Source: a virus
Reading direction: 5' to 3' (one strand)
Length of the DNA stretch: 64,000 nucleotides
IMG/VR virus record: IMGVR_UViG_3300042472_000301
Coordinates: 28,901 to 92,900 of that record
How positions within the stretch are numbered: position 1 is the first letter of the stretch; every line of letters starts with the position of its first letter. A model generated the notes under the pieces. That model saw nothing but the letters and a program-made list of their open reading frames with translations. It did not search any database and had not been told where the DNA came from. This document shows positions 38,105 through 60,850 of this stretch, in pieces. A program made the translations under genes and the position numbers.

Positions 38105-38578
38105 ATGGGAAGGCCTAAGGGTTCAGGGAGTCTGTACACGCAAGAGCTCGCGGCTCACATCTGCGAGCGCCTGTCGATGGGTGAGACGTTGGTGAGCATT
38201 TTGCAGTCGCCGGGGATGCCAAAGCGCTCTACCGTGCAGCACTGGGTGACCGACCTGCCCGAGTTCGGAGAAATGTACGCGCGCGCGAGAGACGCAGGCT
38301 TCGACGTTTTGGCCGAAGACACCATCAGAATCATCGACGAGGAACCCGAGCGGATCACCGGCGAAGGGGGCGGTCGGCGTGACAGCGCCTACGTCCAGTG
38401 GCAAAAGAACCGCGTCGAGCTCAGGCTGCGCCTGCTCAAGAGCTGGTGCCCCAAGCGCTACGGCGATCGCCAAGTGCTGGTCGGCGAGGCCGAGAACCCG
38501 CTCACGTTGGCATTTACCCCCGAGACGCTCATCTCGCTGGCCGACGGCCTGCAGACCGAGCGCCAAGATGGCAAGTAG
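38105..38578 (+). CDS. terS: terminase small subunit (Sf6-like)
   Basis: GRP...YT.E.A..ICE.L..GE.L..I.....MP..STV..W...F...YARAR; GGAGG RBS; directly upstream of TerL. Confidence 0.8.
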   Translation: MGRPKGSGSLYTQELAAHICERLSMGETLVSILQSPGMPKRSTVQHWVTDLPEFGEMYARARDAGFDVLAEDTIRIIDEEPERITGEGGGRRDSAYVQWQKNRVELRLRLLKSWCPKRYGDRQVLVGEAENPLTLAFTPETLISLADGLQTERQDGK

Positions 38579-39992
38579 TCTGGCCAAGAGGCTGCTCGAT
38601 CCCGCGTTCCAGCGCGAGTACGCAGCTTACCCACCCGAACACCGCGCGGCCTTTGAGGCCCGCGTCGCGTGGCTTAAGAAGGCCCACGCGCACCAGATCC
38701 TGCCGGCCGGCGACTGGTGGTCGATCTGGCTGCTGCTGGCTGGGCGCGGCGCTGGCAAGACGCGCACCGCGGCCGAGCAGGTCTGGTGGTGGGCGTGGAC
38801 CCAACCCAACACGCGCTGGCTGGTATCCGCCCCCACGTCGGGTGACGTGCGTGCGACCTGCTTTGAGGGCGATAGCGGCATTTTAAACGTGATGCCCAAG
38901 GTCTTACTGGCCGACTACAACAAGAGCCTCTCTGAGATCGTTTTAACCAACGGCAGCCTGATCAAGGGTATACCCGCATCCGAGCCCGAGCGGTTCCGCG
39001 GCCCGCAGTTTCACGGCGCGTGGCTCGACGAGCTGGCCGCATGGGAGTACTTAGACGACGCGTGGGATCAGATCCAGTTCGGCGTGCGGCTGGGCAAGCG
39101 CACGACCATCATCGCGTCCACCACGCCGCGCCCCAAGGACCTGATCAGCGCGTTGGCCGACCGTGACGGCGAGGACGTGTACCTGACCACGGCCAGCACC
39201 TACGCCAACCTTGACAACCTCGCCCCCAGCTTTCGCGACCAGATCCTGCAGTACGAGGGCACACGATTAGGCGACCAAGAGATTCACGCCTCGATCCTCT
39301 CGAGCGAGGACACCGGTATCGTCAAGCGCGCGTGGTTCAAGCTCTGGGGTGCTGAGAAGCCCCTGCCCCAGTTTGAGTACGTGGTGCAGTCATATGACTG
39401 CGCGACCAGCACCCGCACGGCGGCCGACCCCACGGCGTGTGTCGTGCTTGGCGTGTTTAAGCCGAGCGAGGACAAGGGCATGAGCGTCATGTTGATCGAC
39501 TGCTGGAGCGAGCGCATCCAGTACCCCGAGCTGCGCCCCAAGGTGATCTCGGAGAGCGAGGAGATTTATGGCGACGAGAACGAGTTCGGCAACGGCAAGA
39601 AGGTCGACCTGATCCTGATCGAGGACAAGTCGGCCGGTATCGTGCTGCTGCAGGACTTACAGCGTGCCGGGCTGCCTGTGCGCTCTTACAATCCGGGCAA
39701 CGCCGACAAGACCATGCGGCTAAACATCGTGAGCCCGCTGATTGCACGCGGCCGGGTCTACCTGCCCGAGTCGACGGTCAACCCCGGCTGCGCGCGTGAT
39801 TGGTGCGACGCGTTCCTCAGTCAGGTCTGCAGCTTCCCCGACAGCAAGCACGACGACTACGTCGACGCGCTCAGTCAGGCGCTCAGGGTGCTGCGCGACA
39901 TGGGCTTCGTAAACATTGACCCGGTCGCCGACCCTGACCTATACTACGCCGACGACGACCGCCCCAAGCGCGACAACCCCTATGCAGCATAG
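38568..39992 (+). CDS. terL: terminase large subunit
   Basis: AGRGAGKT Walker A, WLDE Walker B, nuclease SYDCA, IEDK, HDDYVDA; likely start MASSLAK. Confidence 0.92.
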   Translation: MASSLAKRLLDPAFQREYAAYPPEHRAAFEARVAWLKKAHAHQILPAGDWWSIWLLLAGRGAGKTRTAAEQVWWWAWTQPNTRWLVSAPTSGDVRATCFEGDSGILNVMPKVLLADYNKSLSEIVLTNGSLIKGIPASEPERFRGPQFHGAWLDELAAWEYLDDAWDQIQFGVRLGKRTTIIASTTPRPKDLISALADRDGEDVYLTTASTYANLDNLAPSFRDQILQYEGTRLGDQEIHASILSSEDTGIVKRAWFKLWGAEKPLPQFEYVVQSYDCATSTRTAADPTACVVLGVFKPSEDKGMSVMLIDCWSERIQYPELRPKVISESEEIYGDENEFGNGKKVDLILIEDKSAGIVLLQDLQRAGLPVRSYNPGNADKTMRLNIVSPLIARGRVYLPESTVNPGCARDWCDAFLSQVCSFPDSKHDDYVDALSQALRVLRDMGFVNIDPVADPDLYYADDDRPKRDNPYAA

Positions 39993-39999
39993 GTAAACC

Positions 40000-42900
40000 A
40001 TGAGCCGTATTAAACGAGCAGTCAAGGGTTTTATCGATCCCATTACCACGAAGGTGGAAGACTGGAAGTGGCGGGCGCTTGCTGACGTCGACAAGGAGCT
40101 CAAGCTCAAGGAAGTACCCGACTACATTCAAGGCGGCTACGGCGGCTTCATGGCCGACCAGCTCAAGCGCGCAGAGGCCGGCGACCTTAACGCCCGCGAC
40201 CTCATCAAGGCGTACACCATTACTCAGTCATCGATCGGGCGCGGTGGCCTGTCGCACGCGACGGCAACCAAGCGCGGCTTGAAGCTGCCCGACACCGGGG
40301 GTGAAGTGCGCCCCGAGGGTGCCTTTGCCGAGTGGCTGGGCTCGCCCTTAGGGCAGCGCTACCTCGACATGGCCGAGCGCGGCGAGCTCGATTCCAAGGC
40401 GCTCAAAGAAATCCAAGCGGCGTTCGCGCCCTTTGGCAAGCAGAACGATCAGGTGGCCAAGATGGAGTGGGCGGCGCAGAACCTGCCCGGCATGGCCACC
40501 GACCTCAATACCCGCGTGACCGGTTCGCTCGGCGACTGGCGCAACTACACCGACGAATTGCGCGGCATCGCGGCCGCCAAGTCTGGCTTCGTTGGCTCGC
40601 TGCTCGGCCGCGGCGACGTGCCCACGCTGGACGCGCGTCAGCTCAACCTGCACGGCACCACGCCCCCAGTCGGGCTGGGCTCGATTCAGAACCGCGGGGG
40701 CGGTACAGGCGGGCGCGAGCTCGTCGATCGCCTGAGCGCACGCCAAGAGGCGCTGGGGCTTAAGCTCGACCCAAGCCTTGACCCGTTCTACCAGCACCTT
40801 GGCCACCACGCCGTCTGGGACAAGATCGGCAACACAGAAACCACACATGCGGACTTGGTGCGAGCGATGCGCGACTACAACAAGGGCGGTGCCGTACACA
40901 TGGCTGGCGGCAGCTTAGTCAAGAAGGCTGCCAAGGCCGCCACCAGCCGCATTGACATGAACTACAAGGACGTGACTCAGCGCACGCCTGAGCTGCAAGA
41001 TGCGGCCAACAAGCTCATCGGTGGCGAGCTCTCGGCGGCCGAGTACGACGCGCTGGTCAACCAATACAAACCCGTCACGCCCTACGCCACGGTGCCCACA
41101 CCCGCCACGCGCGAGGAGGCCACCGGCGCACTCACGGCCGATAAGCGCGAGCGCTACGGCCTGCCATCGCAGACGCTGGAGCAAGGCCACCCGGTCGGAC
41201 TGCGCCTTGACATCCCGTCGTACAGCAACCACGGCGTCTGGGTGCCCACCGTGCACGAGCAGGAACCCGGCTTTGGGGCTGGCAAGAGCATCGGGCACGA
41301 GAGCGTGGCAAGCGTGCTTAACCCGCAGTTTGGCATGTCCGAGAAGGCCGCGCTGGCCATCGCGAGCGGTAAGCCCAAGGGCACGATCGCAACGATCAAG
41401 GGCGACTGGAATAAGCTGAGTGAGCAGGAGGCCGTCGAGCGCGCAAAGGAGTACCTGAAGAGCCCCGAGTGGCGTCAGGTGGGCATGGATCCCGAGCGGC
41501 ACTCGTACTTCTACGACCGCGCGACTATGCAGCCCGTCACGAGCGCCGACGAGGCGCTGCAGATCGGTCCGCTCGTGCTGGTGAAGAACCCCGTGTATGG
41601 CAAGAAGGAGGACTTTAAGTACGCCGCGGGCGGGATGGTTGACTCGGTGCCCGAGGAGGCGATCAAGAACATGGTTAAAGACCCACAGGCAGCACGACTG
41701 CTCGACCTTGATCTCGCCAAGTACGCGCTGATGAACCAGCCGCAGAAGATGGCCGCGGGCGGTATCGCGCGCATGGCCGGCGGTGGTGCGCGCAAAGTAG
41801 CTAGGGACGCCTCAAGTTCAATTTTGAACAAAGGGTTTGAAGCACTGGAAGCGCAAGCAGCGCAAGCAGCCGCAGCCAACACGATTAAAGCCGCCGACCG
41901 GGCAGCAGCCGGGCGCGCAGCGGCAGCACAGATTGAAGCCCAGCCTGAAGTACCAATGTCAGAGGCGCTGGGCAATCTGAACACCGAGGGCAAACGGATA
42001 GTTGGCACCCAAGCCGATCGTACCCGCGTTGGGGGCGGCAACATTGGTGGTGCTCCCTTTTCCGCAATATCGCTGGCCGATCCTAACTACCAAGGTAAGG
42101 TCTGGGGCGTGGGTAGCCAAAGCGCTGCAAGTACGCTCACTAATCAAAACGACCCACGCACAATTTGGACAACACTGCTGGGTTCAAAATTCCAGCTTAA
42201 GACCAATCCGATTGTGTTTGCCAAGCTTGAAAAAGAATTTAGACAAGCAATGAAAGACGGGAAACTAAGCCCCGAGCTCGAAGCCAAGATCAATCACAAC
42301 TTAGCGCTTAACTTTGGCGAGGGCGCTGACATCCGCGATCCGAACATTTGGAAGGCAGCCGACAGCTTTGATCGCCGCGCGGCATTGTCCGATATCATGA
42401 TCGGCGAAGGCATCCCTCCTAGCAAGGGCGGCGTAGCGTTGGGCGGCGCGAAGAGCGGCAAGGGGGTTATTTTTGATCCGCTTAGCATCCTCACTCGTGA
42501 GACGGAGCCCAGCCTTCGCGGCGATGTACCCACCTTTTCGCTCGGCCCGCGTCTGTTCACGATGAGTGGCGAGACGTCGTTTCGCCCTGACTTACATCCC
42601 GGCTTTCCAATGCTGCTTCACGGCGAAGACCTTGGGTTTAACGTGCGTCCGGTGCCCAACGAGATTGCGCTGCCTGATTATCGTACCGAGTTTGCACGAC
42701 GTAATCCTACGCGCGATCCCAGCTACTACGATCTGACCAAAGGCTTTAAGGGTGAAGGCCTGCCCAGCCAGATGATCACTGAAGAGTGGTTGAGTCATTT
42801 GCAAAAGCACGGCCATAAGGACGGCGGCGCGGTGCATATGAAGGACGGCGGCAAGGCCGACGAGGACCTCTTCGCGCTCAAGCCCCAGCCCAAGCCGGCC

Positions 42901-45900
42901 ATCCCGACGGTGCGAGAGCTCGTTGCTGAGATCGGCAAGAACCCTGCGCGCTACGAAGCACCATACCCACCCAAGGATGCTACGCCGCTGAGCTTGCAGG
43001 CATATCACCTGATGCAGGCCGCCAAGACGACGCCCGACGCTAATCGCTACCTCGAGTCGTTGAACCCGTACTTTGATTCGCAACTTCGCTTTGACATCGG
43101 AGCGGGCAGCGACGCAGGCTACGTGAAGTTCAAGGAGCCGAACATCGCGGTGATGCAGAAACTCGAGGACGTGAAGAACACGATCCCGCATGAGCTCACG
43201 CACACGCTGCAGCTCGGCAAGGGCGCGAACGTTAACCTTGAGCGCGACCGCCAAGTCATGCAGCGTGCGCAAGGGTTGCCCGCTGCAACGCAACAAAGCG
43301 TGCTGCCTTCAACAAATCGTTTTGAGAACATGAAGGAAGTCTGGGCGAACATCAACGCTCGGGCGCATGAGGTTAACGCAGCGGGCGGTGACTTCATCAA
43401 CACACCCGAGGGCAGGGCGCTCTTCCCCACACCTGAGGCGCAGCGCGAGTACTACACGAAGTCGATGCCGGGCGTGAACAGCATGACTCCTAGCACTGGC
43501 ACATTTGTGCCGAATCGCCGATATGGTGAAGGCGGTGGTGTATTTAACCCACAGGGGTCTGACTACGACTACCAGACGGCTCGCGCTTACGGCATGGGAC
43601 AAGGGGACAACGGTCATTGGGGCTCGGTCGCACCCGCGTCAGAAAGCGAGCGCAAGCTGCACGGCTTGCCCGAGGACAGCTACCTCATGCTCAAGGGCGC
43701 AGAGCACCCAACGTGGAGTAAGGCTGTTGAGGCAGAAGAGTCTCGCGGCTCAAAAATCGTCAAGTACGGCGATCGCTACTACTCTGTGCCCAAGAAGGCC
43801 AACGGCGGTCAAGTGCAGCGTTTTGATGACGGCGGCGAAGTCAGCCAGTCAGAGCTTGATCGCATGCGCTTCGAGATTGCACAACAACAGAACCCTAGCA
43901 GCCCTGTCATGCAGGCGACGCCACGCAGCCCGATACAGGACGCCATCGGCACGTTCGGTGGCTACATGGATCGTGCCGGCAAGTTCGTGAGCGAGGCGAT
44001 TGCGCCGACCGCCGAGAAGCACCCGGTCAAGCATTTCCTCGCGGATCTGATTCTGGCTTCGTCGCTCAAGAGCGCCGGCACCGCGCTGCAGGACTACACG
44101 GGCACCGCACGCGAGGCAGACGAGGACAACCCCGTGCGTGGCCTCATCGACAAGGACTGGCGCAAGCTCAGCACAGGCACCGAGCCGCTGCTCGACCCGC
44201 GGGCGCTGGACATCGCGGGCTTTGCAACACCAGTCGTCAGGGGTGCAACGAAGCTTGCCCGAGTGGGTGCGAAAGCCGTTGCCCCGTTTGCAACGAGGGT
44301 CGACGACATGGTGCGTGAACTCAGCGCGTCAGGCGCGATCCCGCAGCCGGGTCTATCTATCAAGGATGTCACCCCCAAGGTGCTCGCCCCCGCCAACGCG
44401 CAGGGGTTCTACTCGCCGACCGAGGCGGCGGCATTGAACCTGCAGCGCCAGTCTGGCAGCGGGCAGGCGTTGCTAAATGACATATTAAAGGGCGAGAACG
44501 TGCGCGCGGAGGAGGTCAGCGGGATGGGGCTCGATACGTTCTTGAAGGACAAGCCCAACGCTACGGCCGCCGAGGTGCAGGACTACATCGCCAAGAATAA
44601 ACTACAACTGGGCGACAGGACCTACAAAAAAGAAAACGTGACGTGGGGCAAGAATGAAAACGGCGAGATAGTCACTGAGAACTTGCCGAACCCGTACACG
44701 ATTTCAAGCGAGTACGGTAAGACGTACATCACCAATTCCAAAAACAATACGTTAGGCATAACGTTTAAAAACGAGGCAGAAGCTAAGAAGTACATCGAGG
44801 ACTTGGTCGTCGATGACGCCCTGCTGCCCAACGACCTGAAGTGGGCGCAGTGGTCACTACCCGGTGGCGAGAACCACCGCGAAGTCACCCTGAACCTGCC
44901 AAGCGGCAAGCGCGAGGACATGGTCTACAAGGAGCAGAGCCTTGAAGCGCTCAAAAGAGGGGCGCTAGATTACGCGGCAATGGGCGACCTCAGCAGCGCC
45001 AAGCAGCTCTCAACAAGAGCCGAGAAGCTCGAGCGCGAGATCGAGCAGTTAAAGCGTCAACCACAGAACCGCACGCCCGAGTTTCCCAAGCAAGCCGAGA
45101 TTGATGACTTAGACGCGCGCATGGCGCAGCTAAAGGCCGAGGGTAATCGTGAAGAATTTGGCAAGCTACAGAGTGAAAGAACCGAGCTGCGTGCTGAGCG
45201 CAGTGCGTACTTAGCGCGCGAAGAAGCGCGGCTTCAAAAGGAAGCATACGCAAATCAATTCCGCGAATCGCACTGGGAGGACCCCAACGTGCTTGCCCAC
45301 CTGCGCATGAGCGACCGCGTGACCGACGGCAAGAAGACGCTGCTGGTCGACGAGTTGCAGTCCGACTGGCACCAGAAGGGGCGTGAGCGCGGCTACAGGG
45401 GCGATGAGATTGACACCAAGGGCTGGACGGTCGAGAGCCTCTACGTCACCAAGCCGGAGGAGGTCGCCGTATATGACGCCCGGGGTAAGGAAATCTGGGC
45501 GGGTAAGTCAAAAGGTGACGAGGCACAGACCATAGCAAAGGTCGTGGAGGAGTTAAAGAAGAAGCAGGTACCACAGGCACCCTACAAGGACGACTACTAC
45601 CAGCTCGCGTTACGCCGTGCTATTAAAGACGCGATTGACGGCGGCTACGACCGCGTGGCGCTGCCCACGGGTTCGCGTGTGGCCGAGCGGTTTGGCACGG
45701 GTAGTCGCATCGATCGTCTTGACTACAACAAAAACTCCGACGGCACCTACGGCATGTCGGCCATCAAAAACGGCCGCGAAGTCGCCGCAAGGGAGTACCT
45801 TAGCGAGGACGAGTTCTTCGGTCTTATTGGCAAAGATATTGCAAAAAAAGTTGTTGACGAGGAGGGTGGTGTATCTAAAGAGGTTAAGGGTCGTTGGGGA

Positions 45901-46212
45901 CCTGATGACGACTACTTTGAAAATTTCAAATCGCTTACAGGCCTTGACCATGTTATTGGCGGCAAGGGCATGAAGAAGTACTACGACGAGATTTACCCCG
46001 GCTACCTCAAGAAGTTTGGCAAGAAGTACGGCGCAAATGTTGGCAACACAACCGTTGACGCTGACGGCGTGGCCGAGCCTTTGTTCTACATGGACATCAC
46101 TCCTGCGATGCGCAAGGAGTTCAGCACTGGCATTCACATGAAGCGTGGCGGCAAGGTGTCGTTCGCCTCAAATGTTGACGCGATGCGTTACGAATTAAAT
46201 AAAAGGCAATAA
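40000..46212 (+). CDS. giant multi-module (polyvalent) virion-associated protein, 2070 aa
   Basis: Single ORF between TerL and portal; HELTH zincin motif, HhH-like module, ELQSDWHQ module, repeated xxGG linkers. Confidence 0.75.
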   Translation: MSRIKRAVKGFIDPITTKVEDWKWRALADVDKELKLKEVPDYIQGGYGGFMADQLKRAEAGDLNARDLIKAYTITQSSIGRGGLSHATATKRGLKLPDTGGEVRPEGAFAEWLGSPLGQRYLDMAERGELDSKALKEIQAAFAPFGKQNDQVAKMEWAAQNLPGMATDLNTRVTGSLGDWRNYTDELRGIAAAKSGFVGSLLGRGDVPTLDARQLNLHGTTPPVGLGSIQNRGGGTGGRELVDRLSARQEALGLKLDPSLDPFYQHLGHHAVWDKIGNTETTHADLVRAMRDYNKGGAVHMAGGSLVKKAAKAATSRIDMNYKDVTQRTPELQDAANKLIGGELSAAEYDALVNQYKPVTPYATVPTPATREEATGALTADKRERYGLPSQTLEQGHPVGLRLDIPSYSNHGVWVPTVHEQEPGFGAGKSIGHESVASVLNPQFGMSEKAALAIASGKPKGTIATIKGDWNKLSEQEAVERAKEYLKSPEWRQVGMDPERHSYFYDRATMQPVTSADEALQIGPLVLVKNPVYGKKEDFKYAAGGMVDSVPEEAIKNMVKDPQAARLLDLDLAKYALMNQPQKMAAGGIARMAGGGARKVARDASSSILNKGFEALEAQAAQAAAANTIKAADRAAAGRAAAAQIEAQPEVPMSEALGNLNTEGKRIVGTQADRTRVGGGNIGGAPFSAISLADPNYQGKVWGVGSQSAASTLTNQNDPRTIWTTLLGSKFQLKTNPIVFAKLEKEFRQAMKDGKLSPELEAKINHNLALNFGEGADIRDPNIWKAADSFDRRAALSDIMIGEGIPPSKGGVALGGAKSGKGVIFDPLSILTRETEPSLRGDVPTFSLGPRLFTMSGETSFRPDLHPGFPMLLHGEDLGFNVRPVPNEIALPDYRTEFARRNPTRDPSYYDLTKGFKGEGLPSQMITEEWLSHLQKHGHKDGGAVHMKDGGKADEDLFALKPQPKPAIPTVRELVAEIGKNPARYEAPYPPKDATPLSLQAYHLMQAAKTTPDANRYLESLNPYFDSQLRFDIGAGSDAGYVKFKEPNIAVMQKLEDVKNTIPHELTHTLQLGKGANVNLERDRQVMQRAQGLPAATQQSVLPSTNRFENMKEVWANINARAHEVNAAGGDFINTPEGRALFPTPEAQREYYTKSMPGVNSMTPSTGTFVPNRRYGEGGGVFNPQGSDYDYQTARAYGMGQGDNGHWGSVAPASESERKLHGLPEDSYLMLKGAEHPTWSKAVEAEESRGSKIVKYGDRYYSVPKKANGGQVQRFDDGGEVSQSELDRMRFEIAQQQNPSSPVMQATPRSPIQDAIGTFGGYMDRAGKFVSEAIAPTAEKHPVKHFLADLILASSLKSAGTALQDYTGTAREADEDNPVRGLIDKDWRKLSTGTEPLLDPRALDIAGFATPVVRGATKLARVGAKAVAPFATRVDDMVRELSASGAIPQPGLSIKDVTPKVLAPANAQGFYSPTEAAALNLQRQSGSGQALLNDILKGENVRAEEVSGMGLDTFLKDKPNATAAEVQDYIAKNKLQLGDRTYKKENVTWGKNENGEIVTENLPNPYTISSEYGKTYITNSKNNTLGITFKNEAEAKKYIEDLVVDDALLPNDLKWAQWSLPGGENHREVTLNLPSGKREDMVYKEQSLEALKRGALDYAAMGDLSSAKQLSTRAEKLEREIEQLKRQPQNRTPEFPKQAEIDDLDARMAQLKAEGNREEFGKLQSERTELRAERSAYLAREEARLQKEAYANQFRESHWEDPNVLAHLRMSDRVTDGKKTLLVDELQSDWHQKGRERGYRGDEIDTKGWTVESLYVTKPEEVAVYDARGKEIWAGKSKGDEAQTIAKVVEELKKKQVPQAPYKDDYYQLALRRAIKDAIDGGYDRVALPTGSRVAERFGTGSRIDRLDYNKNSDGTYGMSAIKNGREVAAREYLSEDEFFGLIGKDIAKKVVDEEGGVSKEVKGRWGPDDDYFENFKSLTGLDHVIGGKGMKKYYDEIYPGYLKKFGKKYGANVGNTTVDADGVAEPLFYMDITPAMRKEFSTGIHMKRGGKVSFASNVDAMRYELNKRQ

Positions 46213-46214
46213 CT

Positions 46215-48767
46215 ATGGCTACTGAAATGCCAATCCCGCAAGACTACGGCCGCTTCATCCCGCCCGCGGCGCAGGGTGACAACGAGTTTGCAAGCAGCGA
46301 GTTCGGTGACACCGCGGAGGTCGATCTGTTTGATCAACCCGACGTCGAGGAGCAGGACGACGGCTCAGCGATTGTGCGTCTAGATGATGACACGCTGGGG
46401 CCAGAAGACTCACCGGACTTCTACGAGAACTTAGCCGAAAGCATCCGTGCGTATGACTTATCGGGCATTGCGTCTAAGTACATCGAGCTCGTTGAGAAGG
46501 ACAAGGACGCCCGCGAGGGACGTGATAAACAGTACGAAGAGGGCCTGCGTCGCACGGGACTTGGGCAAGACGCCCCCGGTGGTGCGTCGTTTATGGGGGC
46601 GAGTAAGGTCGTGCATCCGATCATGGCCGAGGGCTGCGTGGACTTTGCGGCGCGAGCCATCAAGGAGCTCTTCCCACCAGACGGGCCAGTGCGCTCAAAG
46701 ATTCTGGGCGAGGTGACTGAGCAGAAGACGATGATCGCCGAGCGCAAGCGCGATTACATGAACTACCAGTTGACCGAGAAGATCGAGGAGTACCGTGACG
46801 AGGAAGAGCAGCTCTTAACCCAGTTACCGCTCGGTGGCTCGCAGTACATGAAGATCTGGTACGACGAGAGCAAGCGTCGTCCGTGCGCCGAGTTCCTGCC
46901 GATCGATAACGTGTACTTGCCCTTTGCCGCGGCGAACTTTTACACCGCGAGCCGTGTGACCGAGGTCAACGACATCACGCAGGACGACTTTGAGGCTCGC
47001 GTCTCATCAGGTCTGTACATCGATCTAGATATCTACCGTGCGAGCCAAGAGCCTGAGGAGAGTAAGCCTGAGAAGGCGAACAACAAGATTGAGGGTCGCA
47101 AGTCAGAGTCTGACAACATCGACGGCGTGCGGCGCGTGTTCCACATCTACACTTGGATGGAGCTCGAGGACGATCAGAAGTCCAAGGGCGAGCGTGCGCC
47201 CTACATCCTGATGATCGATGACCTGTCATCCGAGGTTGTGGGGCTGTACCGCAACTGGGAAGACGGCGACGAGCTCATGACTAAGCTCGACTGGATCGTT
47301 GAGTTTAAGTTCATCCCTTGGCGAGGTGCGTATGCAGTGGGTTTGCCCCATCTTATTGGCGGTCTGTCTGCTGCTCTTACTGGCGCTCTGCGGGCTCTGC
47401 TTGATTCTGCTCATATAAACAACGCCCCCACGATGCTTAAGCTCAAGGGCGGCAAGGTCTCAGGGCAGAGCATTGTTGTTGAGCCCACGCAGGTCACGGA
47501 GATCGAGGGTGCGCCGGGCGTGGACGACGTGAGAAAGATCGCGATGCCGATGCCGTTTAACCAACCCTCTGCGGTGTTGTTTCAGCTCTTAGGCTGGCTC
47601 ACATCGGCGGCTAAGGGTGTGGTCACCACGGCCGAAGAAAAGATCGCTAACGTCACCTCTAACGCCCCCGTAGGCACCACGCAGGCGCTGATCGAGCAGG
47701 GTGCTGCGGTGTTCTCATCCATCCACGCGCGGCTGCACACAAGCCAAGCACGGGTGCTCAAGATCATCGGGCGCTTGAACCGCTGGTACTTGGATGACAA
47801 CCCTGACGAGATGAGCCAAGAGTTAGGCGTCACCTCAAAGGACTTTGAGAAGAACTCTGACGTTGTACCAGTGTCTGATCCCCACATCTTTGCGGAGTCA
47901 CAACGCTATGCACAAGTACAGGCTCTCGCCGCACGCGCGCAGGCGAATCCAGACTTATACAATCGACTGGCTGTTGAAAAGCGAATTCTTAAGCAGATCA
48001 AGCTTCCTGATATCAATGAAGTGCTACCTGATCCGCAAGACGTTAAGGAAATGAACCCCGCGCTTGAGAACGTCGCCATGACGCTTGGTAAGCCCGTGGG
48101 CGCGTTTCCCAACCAAGAGCACTTAGCGCACATGCAAGTTCACTTGGACTACGCCAAGGACCCTATGTACGGCGCAAGTCCTATCATGGCCCCGGTGTTT
48201 ATCCCCGCGATGCTTGAGCACTTAAAGCAGCACTTGACGCTCTGGTACCTGAACTCGATGGACCGGTACGCATCCAATGCGCTAGGCGAGCAGTTTGACA
48301 TCCTGAAGGTGCAACCCATCATTCAGGAGGCGCAGAAATTGCTTGCAGCGAGCTCGCAGCACGTGCACCAAGACACGCAGCAGCAGTTTGCGGGTGTGGT
48401 GCCGATCATGCAGCAGATGATCCAGACCATCCAGCAACTCAAAGCGCAGCAACAGCCTACTGATCCGTCAGTGCAGGCGCTTGTTCAGACCCAGATGGCC
48501 GAGACTAACCGTAAGGCGGCCGATGATCAGGCTCGTTTACAGCTTGATGGCGCAAAGCTCGCGGCAGATACGAAGGCCAAGCAGGAGAAGAACGTTGCCG
48601 ACCAGCAGATTAAGGCGGCAGAGCTCACGCACGACATCAACTTACTCACGCTTGAGCAGCAGCACGAAGCACAGCGTCAACAACTCGCAGCACAACAGCA
48701 ACAACAATTAGCAGCACAACAAGCAGCACAACAATCCCAACCTGAAGCACCACCCCAAGGAGTTTAA
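46215..48767 (+). CDS. portal protein
   Basis: 850 aa; F.ENLAE, GASKVVHP..AE..V.F.ARA..EL.P..GPV, APVGTT.AL.EQG, Gln-rich coiled-coil C-terminus. Confidence 0.85.
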   Translation: MATEMPIPQDYGRFIPPAAQGDNEFASSEFGDTAEVDLFDQPDVEEQDDGSAIVRLDDDTLGPEDSPDFYENLAESIRAYDLSGIASKYIELVEKDKDAREGRDKQYEEGLRRTGLGQDAPGGASFMGASKVVHPIMAEGCVDFAARAIKELFPPDGPVRSKILGEVTEQKTMIAERKRDYMNYQLTEKIEEYRDEEEQLLTQLPLGGSQYMKIWYDESKRRPCAEFLPIDNVYLPFAAANFYTASRVTEVNDITQDDFEARVSSGLYIDLDIYRASQEPEESKPEKANNKIEGRKSESDNIDGVRRVFHIYTWMELEDDQKSKGERAPYILMIDDLSSEVVGLYRNWEDGDELMTKLDWIVEFKFIPWRGAYAVGLPHLIGGLSAALTGALRALLDSAHINNAPTMLKLKGGKVSGQSIVVEPTQVTEIEGAPGVDDVRKIAMPMPFNQPSAVLFQLLGWLTSAAKGVVTTAEEKIANVTSNAPVGTTQALIEQGAAVFSSIHARLHTSQARVLKIIGRLNRWYLDDNPDEMSQELGVTSKDFEKNSDVVPVSDPHIFAESQRYAQVQALAARAQANPDLYNRLAVEKRILKQIKLPDINEVLPDPQDVKEMNPALENVAMTLGKPVGAFPNQEHLAHMQVHLDYAKDPMYGASPIMAPVFIPAMLEHLKQHLTLWYLNSMDRYASNALGEQFDILKVQPIIQEAQKLLAASSQHVHQDTQQQFAGVVPIMQQMIQTIQQLKAQQQPTDPSVQALVQTQMAETNRKAADDQARLQLDGAKLAADTKAKQEKNVADQQIKAAELTHDINLLTLEQQHEAQRQQLAAQQQQQLAAQQAAQQSQPEAPPQGV

Positions 48768-48769
48768 TC

Positions 48770-49051
48770 ATGTCAGACGCAATTTCACAACACAAACGCA
48801 TGGCAATGGGCGAGTCTGTGCCTATGGCTAAGGGCAAGTCAGTCATTCAAAAGTACGCCAAGGGCGGCGCAGTCATGGCAGAGGGCGGCGCAGCTAATCT
48901 GCCAGCAAGAGGCGGCGTTCTAGAGCCAATGAAATCAACGGGCGCAAAGATTGCCAGCCTTAAAAAAGGCGGCGCAGTGCCTAAGAAGGGCATGGGCTTG
49001 ACGATCGCCATTGGCATCCCAGTGCGCAAAGCGGCCGGCCGTGGTCGTTAA
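48770..49051 (+). CDS. small basic protein with three xxGG motifs
   Basis: AGGAG RBS; YAKGGAV, MAEGG, LKKGGAV. Confidence 0.65.
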   Translation: MSDAISQHKRMAMGESVPMAKGKSVIQKYAKGGAVMAEGGAANLPARGGVLEPMKSTGAKIASLKKGGAVPKKGMGLTIAIGIPVRKAAGRGR

Positions 49052-49376: not shown

Positions 49377-49787
49377 ATGAAGGACTTTGAGACCCTCGAC
49401 GAGGCGTTCCCGCAGTGTGTGCACGGCATTACCCCACTGGGCGCTCGAGTGTTGTTACAGCTCAAAAGCGTCAAAAAAGCGAGTAAAGGCGGCATCATTC
49501 TAGTAGAAGAAACACGCGAAACTGAGCGTGCGCAGTCAATGATCGGCAAGGTCTTAGCACTTGGCCCGATCGCATTCAAAAACCGTGACACTTTATCCGA
49601 ATGGGGCGAAGGCATCTGGTGCCAAGTCGGTGATTACGTGCGCGTGCCTCGCTGGTCAGGCGATCGGTTCACGGTTCCCAACCCAAACAACGCAGAAGAC
49701 CAAGTTTCGCTGCAAATCCTGAACGATTTTGAGTTATGGGCAAAGGTTGACCCTGACCAAGTCTTAACCATGAGGCAATTCGTATGA
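49377..49787 (+). CDS. groES: phage co-chaperonin (GroES/Cpn10-like)
   Basis: PLGARVL, SKGGIIL, GKVLALGP, VGD.V. Confidence 0.85.
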   Translation: MKDFETLDEAFPQCVHGITPLGARVLLQLKSVKKASKGGIILVEETRETERAQSMIGKVLALGPIAFKNRDTLSEWGEGIWCQVGDYVRVPRWSGDRFTVPNPNNAEDQVSLQILNDFELWAKVDPDQVLTMRQFV

Positions 49788-50734
49788 ACTCAACAGAAAA
49801 AATGGAAATGCAGGTTGACGAGGAGCAAGACGGCTCCGCGATCGCCCAGTTACCCGAGGGCGAAGCGCCCGAAGCCGAAGAAAAACCCGAACTTGCCGAG
49901 GGTGGTGAGGTCGAAACTAACGACGGGCTCGATTCTGACCCCGATCGTGAGCAAATTCGTGCTGCCCGACGCGAAGAGCGCAAGCTCAAGAAGCAAATTC
50001 ATCGTGAAAAGACCAAAGAATCCAGTCACCTTATCAACAACTTAAGAACACAGAACCAGCAGCTCTCGGAGCGCTTAGCGCACCTTGAAAAGCGCACCTC
50101 GGGGGCTGAATTAGCGCGTGTGGACAAGGCGATTGACGACACCGAGGTGCAGATCGAGTACGCAAAGATGAAAATGCGTGAAGCGGTCGCAAATCAGGAC
50201 GGCGACGCAGTTGTTAAGGCTCAGGAGCTGATGTACGAGTCGCAACGCAAGGTCGAGTCGCTTAAATCTATCAAAGATCAGGCAACCCGGCAGATGTCGC
50301 AGCCACCTAAGCCCACGATGAACGTGCCCGACCCGTCTGTTCAGCGCAATGCCGCGGAGTGGATGGAGCGCAACCCGTGGTACGACCCACAGGCAAAGGA
50401 CATGGACTCTGAAATCGCTCAGCGCTTGGACAAAAAGCTCACCGACGAGGGTTACGACCCATCTTCGCCCGATTACTGGGATGAGCTTGATGATCGCGTC
50501 TCAAAGTACCTGCCGCATCGCACCGGCAATGCTGCACCGCAACGTTCTGCCCAACGCCCACGCATGACGGGCTCAGGGCGTGAGTCTGCACCAACTGGGC
50601 GCGGTAACGAGTTCAGGCTCTCTGCGGATCGTGTGCAGGCAATTAAGGACATGGGCGCGTGGGATAACCCCGATCAACGCGCAAAGATGATCAAATCCTA
50701 CGCAAAGTATGACCGTGAAAACAAAAGGAACTAA
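49784..50734 (+). CDS. capsid scaffolding protein
   Basis: Acidic N-terminus, long coiled coil, W..RNPWY, basic C-terminal helix; upstream of capsid genes. Confidence 0.7.
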   Translation: MNSTEKMEMQVDEEQDGSAIAQLPEGEAPEAEEKPELAEGGEVETNDGLDSDPDREQIRAARREERKLKKQIHREKTKESSHLINNLRTQNQQLSERLAHLEKRTSGAELARVDKAIDDTEVQIEYAKMKMREAVANQDGDAVVKAQELMYESQRKVESLKSIKDQATRQMSQPPKPTMNVPDPSVQRNAAEWMERNPWYDPQAKDMDSEIAQRLDKKLTDEGYDPSSPDYWDELDDRVSKYLPHRTGNAAPQRSAQRPRMTGSGRESAPTGRGNEFRLSADRVQAIKDMGAWDNPDQRAKMIKSYAKYDRENKRN

Positions 50735-50736
50735 TC

Positions 50737-51264
50737 ATGGATAGCCGCTTAAAACGCAGTGCCGGCGAGAGCCGCAACAACCGCACCGAGCAGGACGCAT
50801 CGCGTGCAGCGCCCGAGGAGAACTTTCCGATCGTGCGCGAGCGTCGTCGTGCGCGTAACGAGTTTCAGCAGACCGTGCTACCGAATATCCCCGAGATACC
50901 CGGATTTCACCTGTGCTGGCTCGCTACAAACAGCCAGTATGACCCGATTCACCGCCGGTTTTCACTAGGTTACATGCCTGTACGCGCCGACGAGATGCCG
51001 GGCTACGACATGTACAAGGTCAAGGAAGGCGATCAGTCGGGCCACATCATGTGCAACGAGATGCTGCTTTGCAAGATGCCGATGGATGTTTATCAAGACA
51101 TCATGCTCGAGCACCACCACTTCCAGCCGATGGACGAGGCCGACAAGATTCGCGTCGACCAAGAGCAACTCGTGAGCCAGCGCGACCGATCAGGCAAGGC
51201 GGCGGGTAGCATTGAGGGTAGCTTGCCAGATGAAAGTAACGTGAAATTGCCACACTTTAGTTGA
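50737..51264 (+). CDS. head-module protein of unknown function
   Basis: P.IPG.H..W, GY.PV...E, LLCKMP. Confidence 0.6.
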   Translation: MDSRLKRSAGESRNNRTEQDASRAAPEENFPIVRERRRARNEFQQTVLPNIPEIPGFHLCWLATNSQYDPIHRRFSLGYMPVRADEMPGYDMYKVKEGDQSGHIMCNEMLLCKMPMDVYQDIMLEHHHFQPMDEADKIRVDQEQLVSQRDRSGKAAGSIEGSLPDESNVKLPHFS

Positions 51265-53027: not shown

Positions 53028-54005
53028 ATGCCTCAGTTTTCAGACGACCTATTCTTAGGTTCCGCTATTACCGTTCAGGGTATGGATGCTTACCCTGCTG
53101 TCTCAACTTTTACTGGTTCAATTGCTACCACTACATTAACTGTCACCGCAATGCTTTCTGGTGACCCAATATTTGTGGGTATGTTTATTGACAGTTCAAC
53201 ATCACTTACCAATGGAACTTACATTACCGCTTTTGGTACAGGTTCTGGCGGTACAGGCACTTACACTGTAAGCGCCTCACAAACTGTAGCAAGCGCCACA
53301 ATCATTGGTTCTGGTAATGCTTTGTTGCAAAACCCATCTCCAATGAGCGTAGGTGTTGGTCCGGTGGGTCGCCTTTATGTTTGGGATGCTGTCCCACAGG
53401 CAAAACTGACAACAAACATCGTCGCCGCTGTTATCACAACTGCTACTACGCTCACGCTCGCAGCAGGTGCAGGCGTGACATCAGCCACGATCACAGGTGG
53501 CGGTACAGGCTTGCAACTCGACTGCCCTCGTGCGGTCTCTACGACCACAGGCGCGGGTAGCCCGACTACTGTAAACATTACTGTCTCTGGTTACGACTAC
53601 TACGGTCAAGCCATGAGCGAAGTCATTGCAACAGGAACAGTGGCATCAACAACCGTCAGCGGTAAAAAAGCCTTTTACCAAATCGCCAGTGTTGTCTCTT
53701 CTGGCGCAAGCGTGGTGACCGTCGCGGTAGGTACAACCGACATCTTAGGCGCGCCATTACGCATTACTGATGCTGGATACATTACTCGTGCAGGTTGGAA
53801 CAACACTCTAGCAGAAGATGCTGGTACTTTTGCAGCCGCCGCTACTTTGACGGCTACGACAACCACGGGCGATGTGAGAGGTACTTATTTACCTTCCTCT
53901 GCTTGTGACGGTATCAAACGTCTTGTAATGGGAATAGCCCTGCCAGCCATTGCGGCAGGTCCAAATGCAACCCGTACTGGCGCTCTCGGCGTCACACAAG
54001 CCTAA
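53028..54005 (+). CDS. virion structural protein
   Basis: Thr/Ala-rich beta protein; G.DYYGQ..SE, TGDVRGT. Confidence 0.6.
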
Positions 54006-54015
54006 GGGGTAGATC

Positions 54016-54570
54016 ATGGGTTTCAAAGAGATGAAGATGATGAAGTCAACCGAGCCCTCAGTTGATGAGGCCGGCAAGGGCATGAAGAAGGGCGGCAAGC
54101 TAAAGATGCAAATGGGCGGTGCAATGCCTACTGCTCCTCTAGCCGCTGCAGCCCAACCTATGGGTCGTCGTCCCATGCCCTCGCGCCCAGCAATGGGTCG
54201 CCCAGCAATGGGTCGCAAGCCTGATCCTCGCGCAGCAATGCTCGAGGCCGCGATGGCTCAGCGTGCAGGCGCTGGTGCTGCCCCGATGATGCGCAAGAAA
54301 GGCGGCGAAGTTGAGAGCAAGGCGATGCACATGAAAGAAGAGCGCCAGATCAAGGGCATCAAGAAAGAGCTGATGTCTCATGAGGGCAAGCCAGCGTCTA
54401 AGGCTCACAAGGGTCTTAAAACTGGCGGCATGCCCAAGTATGCAACTGGCGGCGTTGTTCAGAAGTACGCAACCGGCGGTGTTGTGCAGAAGTTTGCAGA
54501 CGGTGGCTTCGCTAAAGTAGCGTGCAAAGACGGCGGCGGCTTTAAGGCGATGAAAAAAGGCGGTTGCTAG
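54016..54570 (+). CDS. Lys/Met/Gly-rich protein with nine xxGG motifs
   Basis: MKKGG, MQMGG, RKKGG, LKTGG, YATGG x2, FADGG, CKDGG, MKKGG. Confidence 0.7.
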   Translation: MGFKEMKMMKSTEPSVDEAGKGMKKGGKLKMQMGGAMPTAPLAAAAQPMGRRPMPSRPAMGRPAMGRKPDPRAAMLEAAMAQRAGAGAAPMMRKKGGEVESKAMHMKEERQIKGIKKELMSHEGKPASKAHKGLKTGGMPKYATGGVVQKYATGGVVQKFADGGFAKVACKDGGGFKAMKKGGC

Positions 54571-55402: not shown

Positions 55403-55915
55403 ATGCCGAGCAAATCACCTGCCCAAAAGCGCTTGATGCAGGCCGCCGCTCACACTAAGGGTGGGTTCGGCGGTGTGCCTCAGAAGGTCGGTAAAGAGTT
55501 TGCGGCGGCTGATAAGATGAAAAGCGGTGGGCTATACGCCAACATCCACAAAAAACAGGAACGTATTGCTGCGGGCTCGGGCGAGCGTATGCGCAAGGTA
55601 GGCAGCGCAGGAGCACCGACCGCAGCAGCTTTTAAGCAGTCTGCAAAGACTGCAAAGATGAAAGACGGCGGTGATGTCTCTTTAGCAGTCGGTCGGGGCG
55701 AGAAATTGCCAACAGATCAGGGCGCGGGACTCACAGCCAAAGGTCGTGCGAAGTACAATGCAGCAACAGGGTCGAACCTGAAAGCCCCTCAGCCAGAGGG
55801 CGGTAGCCGTAAAAATTCATTTTGCGCCAGAATGTCTGGTGTAGTCAAGCACGCAAGCGGCGATGCGCCACGCGCAAAAGCCTCCTTAAAACGCTGGAAA
55901 TGTCCGGGGTGGTAG
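55403..55915 (+). CDS. three-module basic protein ending in a DUF6321-like domain
   Basis: MPSKS.AQ..LM..AAH / GLYANIH.K...APT...FK / GLTAKGR..YN..TGSNLKAP...SFCARM..W.C, separated by MKSGG and MKDGG. Confidence 0.65.
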   Translation: MPSKSPAQKRLMQAAAHTKGGFGGVPQKVGKEFAAADKMKSGGLYANIHKKQERIAAGSGERMRKVGSAGAPTAAAFKQSAKTAKMKDGGDVSLAVGRGEKLPTDQGAGLTAKGRAKYNAATGSNLKAPQPEGGSRKNSFCARMSGVVKHASGDAPRAKASLKRWKCPGW

Positions 55916-59076: not shown

Positions 59077-59792
59077 TGGCACAAAGCGGCTTTACCCCAA
59101 TCAAACTTTACCTCTCGACGACCGCGGCGGCAGTGCCTACGGCTGGCAACTTAGAGCCCGGCGAGTTAGCGATCAACAACAACGACGGCAAGCTCTTCTA
59201 CGAAGACAGCTCGGGCGTTGTTCAAGTCATTGCCACAAAGGCGTCTGCTGCTAATTCTTTTTCCGCTGGCACAACAGGTCTCACGCCTAACACTGCTACT
59301 ACTGGTGCAGTAACCTTAGCGGGTACGTTGGCTTTAGCAAACGGTGGAACAAATGCCTCGCTGACGGCTGTAGCAGGTGCGGTGCCTTACTCCTCGGCAT
59401 CTGCGCTTGCTTTGACAGCGGCGGGTACAGCAGGTCAGGTCTTAACGTCAAACGGCGCAAGCGCACCTACATGGTCTACTCCTGCGGGTGGCGTGACACT
59501 TGCCAATGACACATCAACAACTTCTAACCTTTACCCCACATTTGCTGCGGCAACCTCTGGCTCTGTGTCTACTATTTACACGGGCAATGCAAACTTGCTG
59601 TACAAGCCAAGCACGGGCGAGCTTCAGTCAACAGCTTTGGTCGCAAGTAACGGCATCGTGGTAAACAGCGCAACAGTCGCAGCCAACTACACGATTGCAT
59701 CGGGTAACAACGCCATGTCTGCGGGTCCTGTGACGATTAACTCTGGCATTGTGGTCACGGTTAGTTCAGGTTCGGTCTGGGTGGTCGTGTAA
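59076..59792 (+). CDS. tail fibre/branching protein
   Basis: P.AGNL.PGELAIN..DGKLFY anchor-type N-terminus; shares a repeat with 57334. Confidence 0.65.
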   Translation: MAQSGFTPIKLYLSTTAAAVPTAGNLEPGELAINNNDGKLFYEDSSGVVQVIATKASAANSFSAGTTGLTPNTATTGAVTLAGTLALANGGTNASLTAVAGAVPYSSASALALTAAGTAGQVLTSNGASAPTWSTPAGGVTLANDTSTTSNLYPTFAAATSGSVSTIYTGNANLLYKPSTGELQSTALVASNGIVVNSATVAANYTIASGNNAMSAGPVTINSGIVVTVSSGSVWVVV

Positions 59793-60850
59793 TGGGACTG
59801 CGACTCAAAGCCTTCGCTCTAGGTACGGTTGAGGTCAACCCTGTTGACACAGCATCTAACGTGTCTGTGAACGTGCAGGCAGCGAACGGTGTCTTGTCGT
59901 ATGCAGACTCAGCGACTGGCGGTTTATATTTGCCATCAGGAACAACGGCACAGCGTCCTGCAAGTCCTGCAACAGGGCAGATGAGGTTCAATACCACGCT
60001 TGGCTACGCTGAGTTTTATGCGTTGGGGAATTGGTTCGCTGTGGGTGCTACGCCGACTCTTGCTATATCGTATTTAGTTGTGGCGGGCGGTGGTGGTGGT
60101 GGTGCAAGAGGTGCAGGTGGTGGTGGGGCAGGAGGGTTTTTAACAAGCACCACAATGTTAAGTTTAGGCACAACATATACAGTTACTGTTGGTGCTGGTG
60201 GTGCGGGTGGAGTCACTTCCGCCAAAGGCGCTCAAGGTTCTGATTCTGTATTTAACTCTATTACATCAACAGGTGGCGGTGGCGGTGGTACTTATGATGC
60301 TGCACCATCTAGTGGCGGTGGTTCTGGCGGCGGTGGTGGCGATAATGAAGCAAATAGCAGCGGCGTCGGCGCAACTGGAACTAGCGGTCAAGGAAATTCA
60401 GGCGGGACAGGCGCAAATAGCGCCCCTGCGTATGTTGGCGGCGGTGGGGGCGGCGCAGGCGCAGTAGGTGGAAATGCAAATACCGGAACAAATACTGGTG
60501 GTAGTGGTGGTGCTGGTACAGCTTCTAGCATTACAGGAACATCTGTTACTTATGCCGGTGGTGGTGGTGGTTCTAGCTTTAGTGGCACAGGCGGTAGTGG
60601 TGGTGCGGGCGGCGGCGGGGCGGCATTTACGGGGAACACAAATGGAGCAGCAGGTACAGCAAACACCGGCGGCGGCGGCGGTGCGGGTGGTTATCCAACA
60701 TCAACAGGCGGTGCTGGCGGCTCAGGCGTAGTCATCCTATCAGTACCCACGGTGTACTACTCAGGCACAACCACAGGATCACCAACTATTACTACCTCTG
60801 GCTCAAATACGATATTAAAATTTACCTCGTCGGGTTCTTACACGGCATAA
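59792..60850 (+). CDS. glycine-rich tail adhesin
   Basis: LPSGTTAQRP..G..RFNTT anchor; YLVVAGGGGG...GSGVVI...KFTSSGSYTA. Confidence 0.75.
   Translation: MGLRLKAFALGTVEVNPVDTASNVSVNVQAANGVLSYADSATGGLYLPSGTTAQRPASPATGQMRFNTTLGYAEFYALGNWFAVGATPTLAISYLVVAGGGGGGARGAGGGGAGGFLTSTTMLSLGTTYTVTVGAGGAGGVTSAKGAQGSDSVFNSITSTGGGGGGTYDAAPSSGGGSGGGGGDNEANSSGVGATGTSGQGNSGGTGANSAPAYVGGGGGGAGAVGGNANTGTNTGGSGGAGTASSITGTSVTYAGGGGGSSFSGTGGSGGAGGGGAAFTGNTNGAAGTANTGGGGGAGGYPTSTGGAGGSGVVILSVPTVYYSGTTTGSPTITTSGSNTILKFTSSGSYTA

Follow-up and report, generated by a model that had tools for sequence, protein, structure and literature searches.

A conserved double-glycine peptide marks the joints between exchangeable cassettes of a polyvalent protein in an uncultured podophage

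Polyvalent proteins are regarded as the principal means by which phages bring ready-made enzymes into a cell. Packaging into the virion and delivery together with the DNA are predicted for them, and their processing by zincins was predicted by Iyer, Burroughs, Anand, de Souza and Aravind (Iyer et al. 2017, PMC5512222). Packaging is supported for the class by phi24B gp47, a polyvalent protein of 2811 amino acids (aa) that proteomics found to be abundant in virions (bioRxiv 10.64898/2026.04.10.717836), and N4 vRNAP is a polyvalent protein that is packaged uncut (cited in PMC5512222). Here we describe a 2070-aa polyvalent protein of an uncultured podophage. It is encoded by a single intact open frame at 40000-46212 (+) of a 64-kb stretch of DNA, referred to as the window, which is the final part of the 92.9-kb IMG/VR virus record IMGVR_UViG_3300042472_000301 (G000, 92,900 nt). 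The gene is located between the genes of the large terminase subunit (TerL) and the portal protein, in the window and in about 20 related loci. The protein is a chain of at least seven independently folding cassettes, each followed by one or two units of a short double-glycine peptide which we named the seam. The protein class itself is already known. The conserved seam and a seam-plus-helix tail are new, and neither is mentioned in the papers searched: the words 'linker', 'glycine' and 'low-complexity' are absent from the text of Iyer 2017 (PMC5512222), and 'linker', 'glycine', 'conserved motif', 'recombination' and 'cleav' are absent from the text of Jamet 2017.

The seam unit has 8 residues, [M/Y/F]-[A/K]-x-G-G-x-V-x, and is often doubled. 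Across 241 family members the tandem consensus is [I/V]-H-[M/Y/F]-[A/K]-x-G-G-x-V-[H]-[M]-[A], and tandem pairs are spaced by exactly 8 residues in 201 cases. A profile of the seam had 950 matches in the 241 family proteins compared with 3 in shuffled sequences. The 2070-aa protein contains 32 GG dipeptides compared with 19 expected. The initial annotation of this DNA had reported that xxGG linkers split the frame into modules, and its positions, counted from the 'xx', agree with the 11 GG sites found here in seven clusters at aa 296/303, 544, 587/594, 942/950, 1178, 1269/1278 and 2050. Nine of these sites score 13-29 bits with the seam profile, where a shuffled query yields 0.02-0.04 matches. 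This scoring is partly circular, since the profile was built from the 241 family members including the query's own family. The site at 594/595 is weak (7.8 bits), and the site at 1178 is degenerate and scores at most 4 bits. The latter is a real boundary, because homology of locus L018 resumes at aa 1177 and proteins P0045 and P0059 match residues 1178-1271 of the query. The seam copies within the gene use different synonymous codons while V-H-M-A-x-G-G is retained, so it is the peptide itself that is kept and not merely its DNA. The consensus is also unchanged in L045 and L037, phages with only about 30% identity to the window in portal and terminase. AlphaFold2 (AF2) models, which cover the last four of the seven seam clusters, have a predicted local distance difference test (pLDDT) score below 50 at seams 942/950, 1178, 1269/1278 and 2050, between better-predicted blocks. 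These four clusters lie outside confidently folded regions, and the modelled seams are apparently unfolded stretches of low confidence.

Between the seams, the protein has the architecture M1-M2-Lk-M3-M4-M5-M6, all on the + strand. M1 (aa 1-293, 40000..40878) occurs in 78-96 family members, at the N- or C-end of relatives. Seam 1 (aa 291-305, 40870..40914) is doubled, reads ..YNKGGAVHMAGGS.. and scores 23.5 and 15.9 bits. M2 (aa 306-540, 40915..41619) occurs in 49-69 family members, with weak similarity to Phage_L5_gp82/phrog_586 and tblastn matches in Roseobacter phages CRP-207 and CRP-9. Seam 2, a 40-aa mini-module (Lk) and seam 3 together span aa 541-601 (41620..41802; alignment A3, 18 invariant columns). 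A profile search with this Lk unit matched only 46 representative clusters in 1.84 billion proteins, so Lk is confined to this phage group and is not a general element. M3 (aa 602-938, 41803..42813), which is replaced in relatives, is followed by the doubled seam 4 (aa 939-952, 42814..42855, ..KDGGAVHMKDGGK.., 23.2 and 20.0 bits). M4 (aa 953-1174, 42856..43521) is putatively zincin-like, with the invariant motif P-H-E-L-x-H-T-x-Q in alignment A2, and seam 5 behind it is the degenerate one (aa 1175-1180, 43522..43539, ..YGEGGGV..). M5 (aa 1181-1265, 43540..43794) is a small mobile module present in 15 relatives in varied neighbourhoods. The next stretch, aa 1266-1297 (43795..43890), contains the doubled seam 6 (13.1 and 24.5 bits) and an internal copy of a tail helix (..SELDRMRFEI..). 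M6 (aa 1298-2046, 43891..46137; AF2 pLDDT 69) is the most widespread module. It occurs in 123-136 of 240 relatives, is C-terminal in 114 of the 136 and shows strongly conserved blocks in alignment A1. Seam 7 (28.6 bits) and the C-terminal tail, a short helix, end the protein at aa 2047-2070 (46138..46209).

The homology of the protein breaks at the seams. When the 2070-aa protein was compared by BLAST with 120 large relatives, 47% of 444 internal breakpoints fell within 10 aa of a seam, compared with 8.6% expected. Other breakpoint clusters (about aa 1400-1440 and 1630-1750) are located inside M6, around a variable coiled-coil insert. The 241 family proteins, cut at their seams, yielded 685 segments of at least 60 aa in 112 families, whose members align over at least 80% of both partners. 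The family is thus not colinear: its 241 proteins have 153 architectures, and the modules of the query recur among them in many different neighbourhoods and positions.

Exchange of whole cassettes was also observed between closely related phages. For this comparison we used IMG/VR contigs with TerL and portal proteins 95-100% identical to those of the window and shared DNA about 94-96% identical. Like the window, L005, L010 and L013 have the architecture M1-M2-Lk-M3-M4-M5-M6. In L006, L007 and L011 an unrelated 360-aa cassette, X, is in the place of M3, and it is found there in diverged form in L012 and L016. L008, L009 and L014 contain cassette X together with a 177-aa cassette, Y, inserted between M1 and M2. 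L018 has Y, X and a further cassette in the place of M4, so cassette X holds the M3 position in nine of these loci. The nucleotide identity between the window and L007 ends directly after ..MAGGGARKVA and restarts at ..KDGGKAD. On each side of cassette Y stands the 13-aa seam ..DYNKGGAVHMAGG.., and a single base distinguishes the 39-nt coding stretches of the two copies; it is the DNA of seam 1 that is duplicated in this way in L008, L009 and L014. Since near-identical seam copies flank it, the cassette arrives together with one extra seam, and in these three loci the expandable array suggested by the initial annotation can be seen directly. All junctions in these replacements and insertions fall in seam-coding DNA. 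A shift of codon style at 41.8-42.8 kb had also been noticed, and it corresponds to M3, where the GC content dips and the G+C fraction at third codon positions (GC3) is 0.587 compared with 0.75-0.855 for M1, M2, Lk and M4. M3 is a recently exchanged cassette, and its low GC3 is as expected of a recent arrival. Homology breakpoints, cassette exchange at the nucleotide level and AF2 confidence profiles agree that the modules are divided by the seam. It is at the seams that phages gain, lose, replace and permute whole cassettes, and the breakpoints are in seam DNA. The suggestion that modules begin with a basic amphipathic stretch was borne out in part: a net charge of +3 or more was found in the 14 residues after the seam at 14% of 490 junctions, compared with 5% of random windows, while the mean charge was no different.

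Most proteins of the family end shortly after a seam. Of 236 family proteins, 173 stop 10-30 aa beyond the last one. The commonest class of tail is an amphipathic helix, ..[L/V]-D-A-M-R-x-E-L-x-K.., and other classes end in ..D-L-x-I-E-E-R-P-L or ..T-L-D-D-F-L-S-K-Q-G-Y. The copy after seam 6 of the query, with a helix predicted at aa 1283-1297, resembles the ..DAMRxEL.. tails and looks like a scar of gene fusion. In L021 (1996-8152), L022 (1723-9184) and L027 (8924-14681) the array consists of two overlapping genes, and the product of each ends with a seam and a tail of the ..DAMRxEL.. type. These split arrays point to gene fusion and fission at seams.

The query itself has few recognisable domains. 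Scans with Pfam, PHROGs and NCBIfam gave marginal matches or none and no Pfam signature domain, and PDB sequence searches with the whole protein and with profiles A1 and A2 gave no match. The ESM Atlas leads for M1 and M3 (DUF7178, DUF7841) all scored below 0.9, the lead for M1 being DUF7178 at 0.86, and are leads only. M4 has no Pfam match; its HExxH and a downstream Glu are invariant in alignment A2. Its fold similarity to Pro-Pro endopeptidases and lethal factor is weak (Z 3.3-4.1) and comes from a poor AF2 model (aa 925-1300, pLDDT 55). M4 is also found by itself, as a 280-aa gene lacking seams, and in a mini version with Lk, seam and tail. The M6 model aligned to GNAT acetyltransferases (VIA-align) with Z 8-10.3 over 125-143 residues, discontinuously, and a GNAT-like fold of M6 is a lead only. 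With Foldseek against PDB the M6 model gave nothing at E <= 0.001, and weak Hsp70/MreB rows were disregarded. It matched BFVD proteins of uncultured phages at E values of 1e-27 to 1e-4, several of which are named as containing LPD or ART-PolyVal domains. The modules of the query thus yielded only the HExxH signature of M4 and the weak GNAT-like lead of M6, which falls short of the injected counter-defence effectors proposed by the initial annotation. Nor did a relative of P1 DarA/DarB, which it had brought in for comparison, turn up in Pfam, PHROG or NCBIfam scans or in phage tblastn, no direct comparison having been made.

Relatives which share modules with the query carry PF18760 ART-PolyVal, PF18838 LPD23, ParB-like nuclease, SLT lytic transglycosylase, GDSL esterase, PcfJ and DUF6321. 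Because of these domains and the BFVD matches of M6, we assign the 2070-aa protein to the polyvalent proteins of Iyer et al. 2017 (PMC5512222). Like other members of the class, it is very large, has a phage context, is encoded in the head/packaging module beside portal genes and shows extreme mosaicism of architecture. It is composed of many unrelated domains (2-15 in the class; here at least seven with independent distributions), and M4 is a candidate for a zincin-like module. It differs in that the query itself is without a Pfam signature domain of the class. The virion protein phi24B gp47, scanned with the seam profile, gave 0 matches above 7 bits, so the seam defines a subset of the polyvalent class.

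The seam is also found on other proteins encoded by the same phage. Directly after the portal gene, a 93-aa protein (p93, 48770..49051, +) has four GG sites, at least two of them seam-like. A single seam-like site, ..LAEGGEV.., is present in the acidic N-terminal region of the scaffold-like protein (316 aa, 49784..50734, +), and the seam profile gives a score at aa 37 and 43 in the orthologues of L022 and L067. A Lys/Met-rich protein of 184 aa (p184, 54016..54570, +) has ten GG sites, some of them in tandem ..KYATGGVVQ.. units. A protein of 170 aa (p170, 55403..55915, +) has ..MKSGG.. and ..MKDGG.. and then DUF6321 (Pfam, 2.5e-15). Separate PHROG families match aa 1-40, 41-87 and 105-167 of p170 with borders that coincide with its two ..MK[S/D]GG.. 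sites, which makes p170 a small-scale version of the cassette principle. Phages MW202545 and MW202675 have a matching pattern of seam-bearing proteins outside the array. Caulobacter phage RW has GroES, scaffold, p175 and p195 in common with the window, as well as a capsid protein of 78% identity, but is without the polyvalent gene and all seam-bearing small proteins, including p93 and p184. The polyvalent protein, p93, p184 and p170 thus form one accessory set. In the head-module stretches compared with RW, we sought a gene specific to the seam-bearing phages and found none besides those of the seam proteins. The gene of p175 (50737-51264) was considered as that of a small Cys/His protease and was dropped, as RW has a homologue. 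A GroES/Cpn10 homologue (49377-49787, +; Pfam 1.3e-07, phrog_3188), with the loop ..SKGGIIL.., is encoded between the portal and scaffold genes. It is kept in RW and in every relative examined, and the capsid protein is just 304 aa.

Outside this phage group, the lambda tape measure protein gpH has ..FHFATGG.. (aa 731-737) and ..RGYATGGYV.. (aa 778-784), the second of which scores 13.4 bits with the seam profile. Lambda gpH is cut in its glycine-rich C-terminal region by a catalyst that is unknown (PMC12617516). In the window, a 1509-aa ejection protein of another phage (P0244, C-terminus at 18105-18884, +) has ..MMAEGG.. followed by ..GEYVFDASTVSTLGNG... This region resembles aa 731-800 of gpH, where ..FATGG.. 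is followed by ..GEFVFTKEATSRIGVGN.. and ..YATGG... A GE[F/Y]VF..G.GN domain, which lies between the motifs of gpH, is common to both. The C-terminus of P0244 looks like a tape-measure-type domain on a podophage ejection protein.

Because the seam peptide is conserved, we infer that something reads it. We propose that the polyvalent cassette array is expressed with the head genes, is probably packed in the capsid and is cut at its seams, and give this statement as a whole a probability of about 45%. Cutting would take place while the capsid is assembled or afterwards, much as the proteases of T4 (gp21) and phiKZ cut head cargo at short motifs of their own. It would release the modules and take off the terminal targeting helix, and the putative zincin M4 is one candidate for the cutting enzyme of this phage. 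Several observations favour processing. The occurrence of the seam on the scaffold-like protein, p93, p184 and p170 is the distribution that would be expected of substrates of a head protease. A seam and a tail of 10-30 aa at most C-termini, and about one seam per module, likewise suggest cutting. By analogy, it is favoured by the zincin processing predicted for the class (PMC5512222) and by the motif of lambda gpH in its cleaved region.

A number of points weigh against this proposal. No cleavage product was observed, and cutting at the seams is suggested by their sequence and placement. Packaging and injection of the protein are likewise suggested by the position of its gene and by analogy. 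Library scans of the proteins encoded from the portal to the capsid gene showed no recognisable prohead protease, and the capsid protein has no seam. M4 is present in just 24 of 240 relatives, besides its stand-alone form without seams, and the poor AF2 model of M4 and its flanks placed no seam in the active site. Of all these points, the lack of a recognisable protease and the rarity of M4 in the family weigh most heavily. Some polyvalent proteins are packaged without any cutting, as N4 vRNAP is (PMC5512222). The alternating hydrophobic pattern and the tandem repeats would suit a binding strand equally well.

Such a strand could act as an uncut loading or anchoring handle, a possibility that we doubt but take seriously. 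With its flexible glycine flanks it would bind a partner in the capsid interior (capsid protein, portal or scaffold) or other seams, and in this way each module, like the small seam-rich proteins, would enter the procapsid as it assembles. Cargo-loading peptides in encapsulins and the capsid-targeting sequence in T4 are models for such a handle. Binding explains the multivalent small proteins and the behaviour of the accessory set equally well, the set being wholly missing from RW despite the shared head genes and p184 having ten copies in 184 aa, as would suit a multivalent binder. It would also fit the conserved residues on both sides of the GG with their alternating pattern, and the terminal seam and helix that split genes each retain. 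In crAss001, a cargo protein binds the portal wing (PMC10172136). However, one handle per polypeptide would do, yet there is about one per module, and the comparison with RW identified neither a partner nor, among the genes compared, any that was specific to the seam phages besides those of the seam proteins. Complex prediction with the capsid protein (A4) and the Lk seam unit (A3) had a score of 0.00 without controls and is evidence neither way.

It is also conceivable, if unlikely, that nothing reads the seam. It would then be a tolerated hinge and the sole site for viable in-frame recombination, conserved by repeated copying of junctions. Every observed recombination junction is indeed in seam DNA, the 39-nt repeats on either side of cassette Y are alike but for one base, and the modelled seams are disordered. 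We disfavour this explanation because of the synonymous differences between copies that retain V-H-M-A-x-G-G and because of the conservation of the peptide across lineages: the same consensus is found with portals and terminases of about 30% identity and in unrelated small proteins, and conserved Val, His, Met or Ala would not be required of a simple hinge. A further idea, to which we give hardly any credence, is that the seam mimics the mobile loop of GroES (..K-x-G-G-I-V-L..) and recruits host GroEL to each module, with a phage GroES encoded near the portal. The phage does encode such a protein with a GG in its loop, and the seam likewise has GG followed by Val at +2. The likeness is restricted to G-G-x-V, the hydrophobic triplet of GroES being absent; phage RW has the GroES gene and no seams; and a chain of 2070 aa is too large for encapsulation.

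A wider formulation of the proposal is that the seam is a general 'cargo code' of tailed phages, which would be read by a conserved partner or by self-catalysis, mark cargo for processing or loading and serve in addition as the joint for in-frame recombination. It would span this podophage group, phages with portals about 30% identical and perhaps the cleavage region of lambda gpH. We put it forward tentatively and expect that it is wrong sooner than right. This locus reveals with unusual clarity a rule for building arrays: whole cassettes, joined at one conserved peptide, set apart phages that are otherwise about 95% identical. Should the seam prove to be a cut site or a loading handle, it would provide a simple sequence rule for spotting cargo proteins and domain borders in metagenomes, a route to its protease or receptor, and a natural plug-in point for engineering phage-delivered payloads.

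The 2070-aa frame is real, since a colinear homologue of 2068 aa (P0004) is 94% identical to its product. It begins 8 nt downstream of the TerL gene and stops 2 nt upstream of the portal gene. TerL (474 aa, 38568..39992, +) matches Pfam Terminase_6N (4e-22) and Terminase_6C (2e-09). Its start is at about 38568, judged from alignment with the 474-aa orthologue of L007, and the listed GTG at 38379 is probably too far upstream. The portal protein (850 aa, 46215..48767, +) matches phrog_1216 (7.5e-15) and, by tblastn, annotated portal or head-to-tail connecting proteins. Its identity to the corresponding proteins of Caulobacter phage RW and MW202545 is 49-60%, and these two, together with the Roseobacter CRP-901/902 and Pelagibacter HTVC023P/027P podophages, are its closest named relatives. 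The record contains two podophage sets of structural genes, the tail/ejection genes of 'phage A' at 1-22.5 kb of the window and the terminase, portal and capsid genes of 'phage B' from 38 kb, within positions 23000-64000. Contigs related to phage B, moreover, have lengths of 44-57 kb, and so a chimeric or concatenated assembly may underlie the 92.9-kb record. A 325-aa gene on the 3' side of the capsid gene (53028-54005, +) has a GC3 of 0.396 compared with 0.63-0.69 for its neighbours, and in relatives the conservation of its product is confined to the ends. It probably encodes another exchangeable head or fibre protein, possibly surface-exposed. In four proteins (1397-2218, 59792-60850, 60860-61882 and 61893-62849, +) glycine makes up 29-37% of the residues, in long runs of the GGxGxG type. 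Both phages encode such proteins, phage B three of them in tandem. They are probably fibre-like paralogues and have no relation to the seam motif, but inflate naive GG counts.

Several known systems resemble the seam array in part. The head protease gp21 of T4 cuts after L/I-x-E and removes the capsid-targeting sequence of internal proteins and Alt, and the head protease gp175 of phiKZ recognises S/A/G-x-E. Like these motifs, the seam is short and is shared by many proteins associated with the head, scaffold-like and small basic ones among them, and the terminal peptide beside it could be a removable targeting signal. In contrast to T4 and phiKZ, the motif is another one, the capsid protein has no seam, and the terminal signal would be C-terminal rather than N-terminal. 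Junction motifs are reportedly found in the polymorphic toxins CdiA (VENN) and Rhs (PxxxxDPxGL) and in T-even tail fibre genes (His boxes), as Aoki in 2010, Zhang and Aravind in 2012 and Tetart in 1998 are said to have described, and the Rhs motif doubles as a self-cleavage site. In these systems, as here, a conserved short peptide borders variable modules that are swapped by recombination. They have one C-terminal tip behind one motif, whereas every module of the array is bracketed and the order is permuted, and there is no sequence similarity between the motifs. P1 DarA/DarB share with the array the general idea of anti-defence proteins packed in the capsid and differ in gene context. In the crAss001 atlas (PMC10172136) the string 'proteoly' is absent, and the passages with 'processed' give no cleavage sites of cargo. 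In T5 pb2 the cut falls behind R1127, at a site that does not obviously resemble a seam. The seam-like motifs of lambda gpH are in the glycine-rich C-terminal part that is cleaved. This protein belongs to the tail and is not head cargo, and the likeness of 7 residues may be convergent or due to chance; the seam may nevertheless bear on the unexplained cleavage of gpH.

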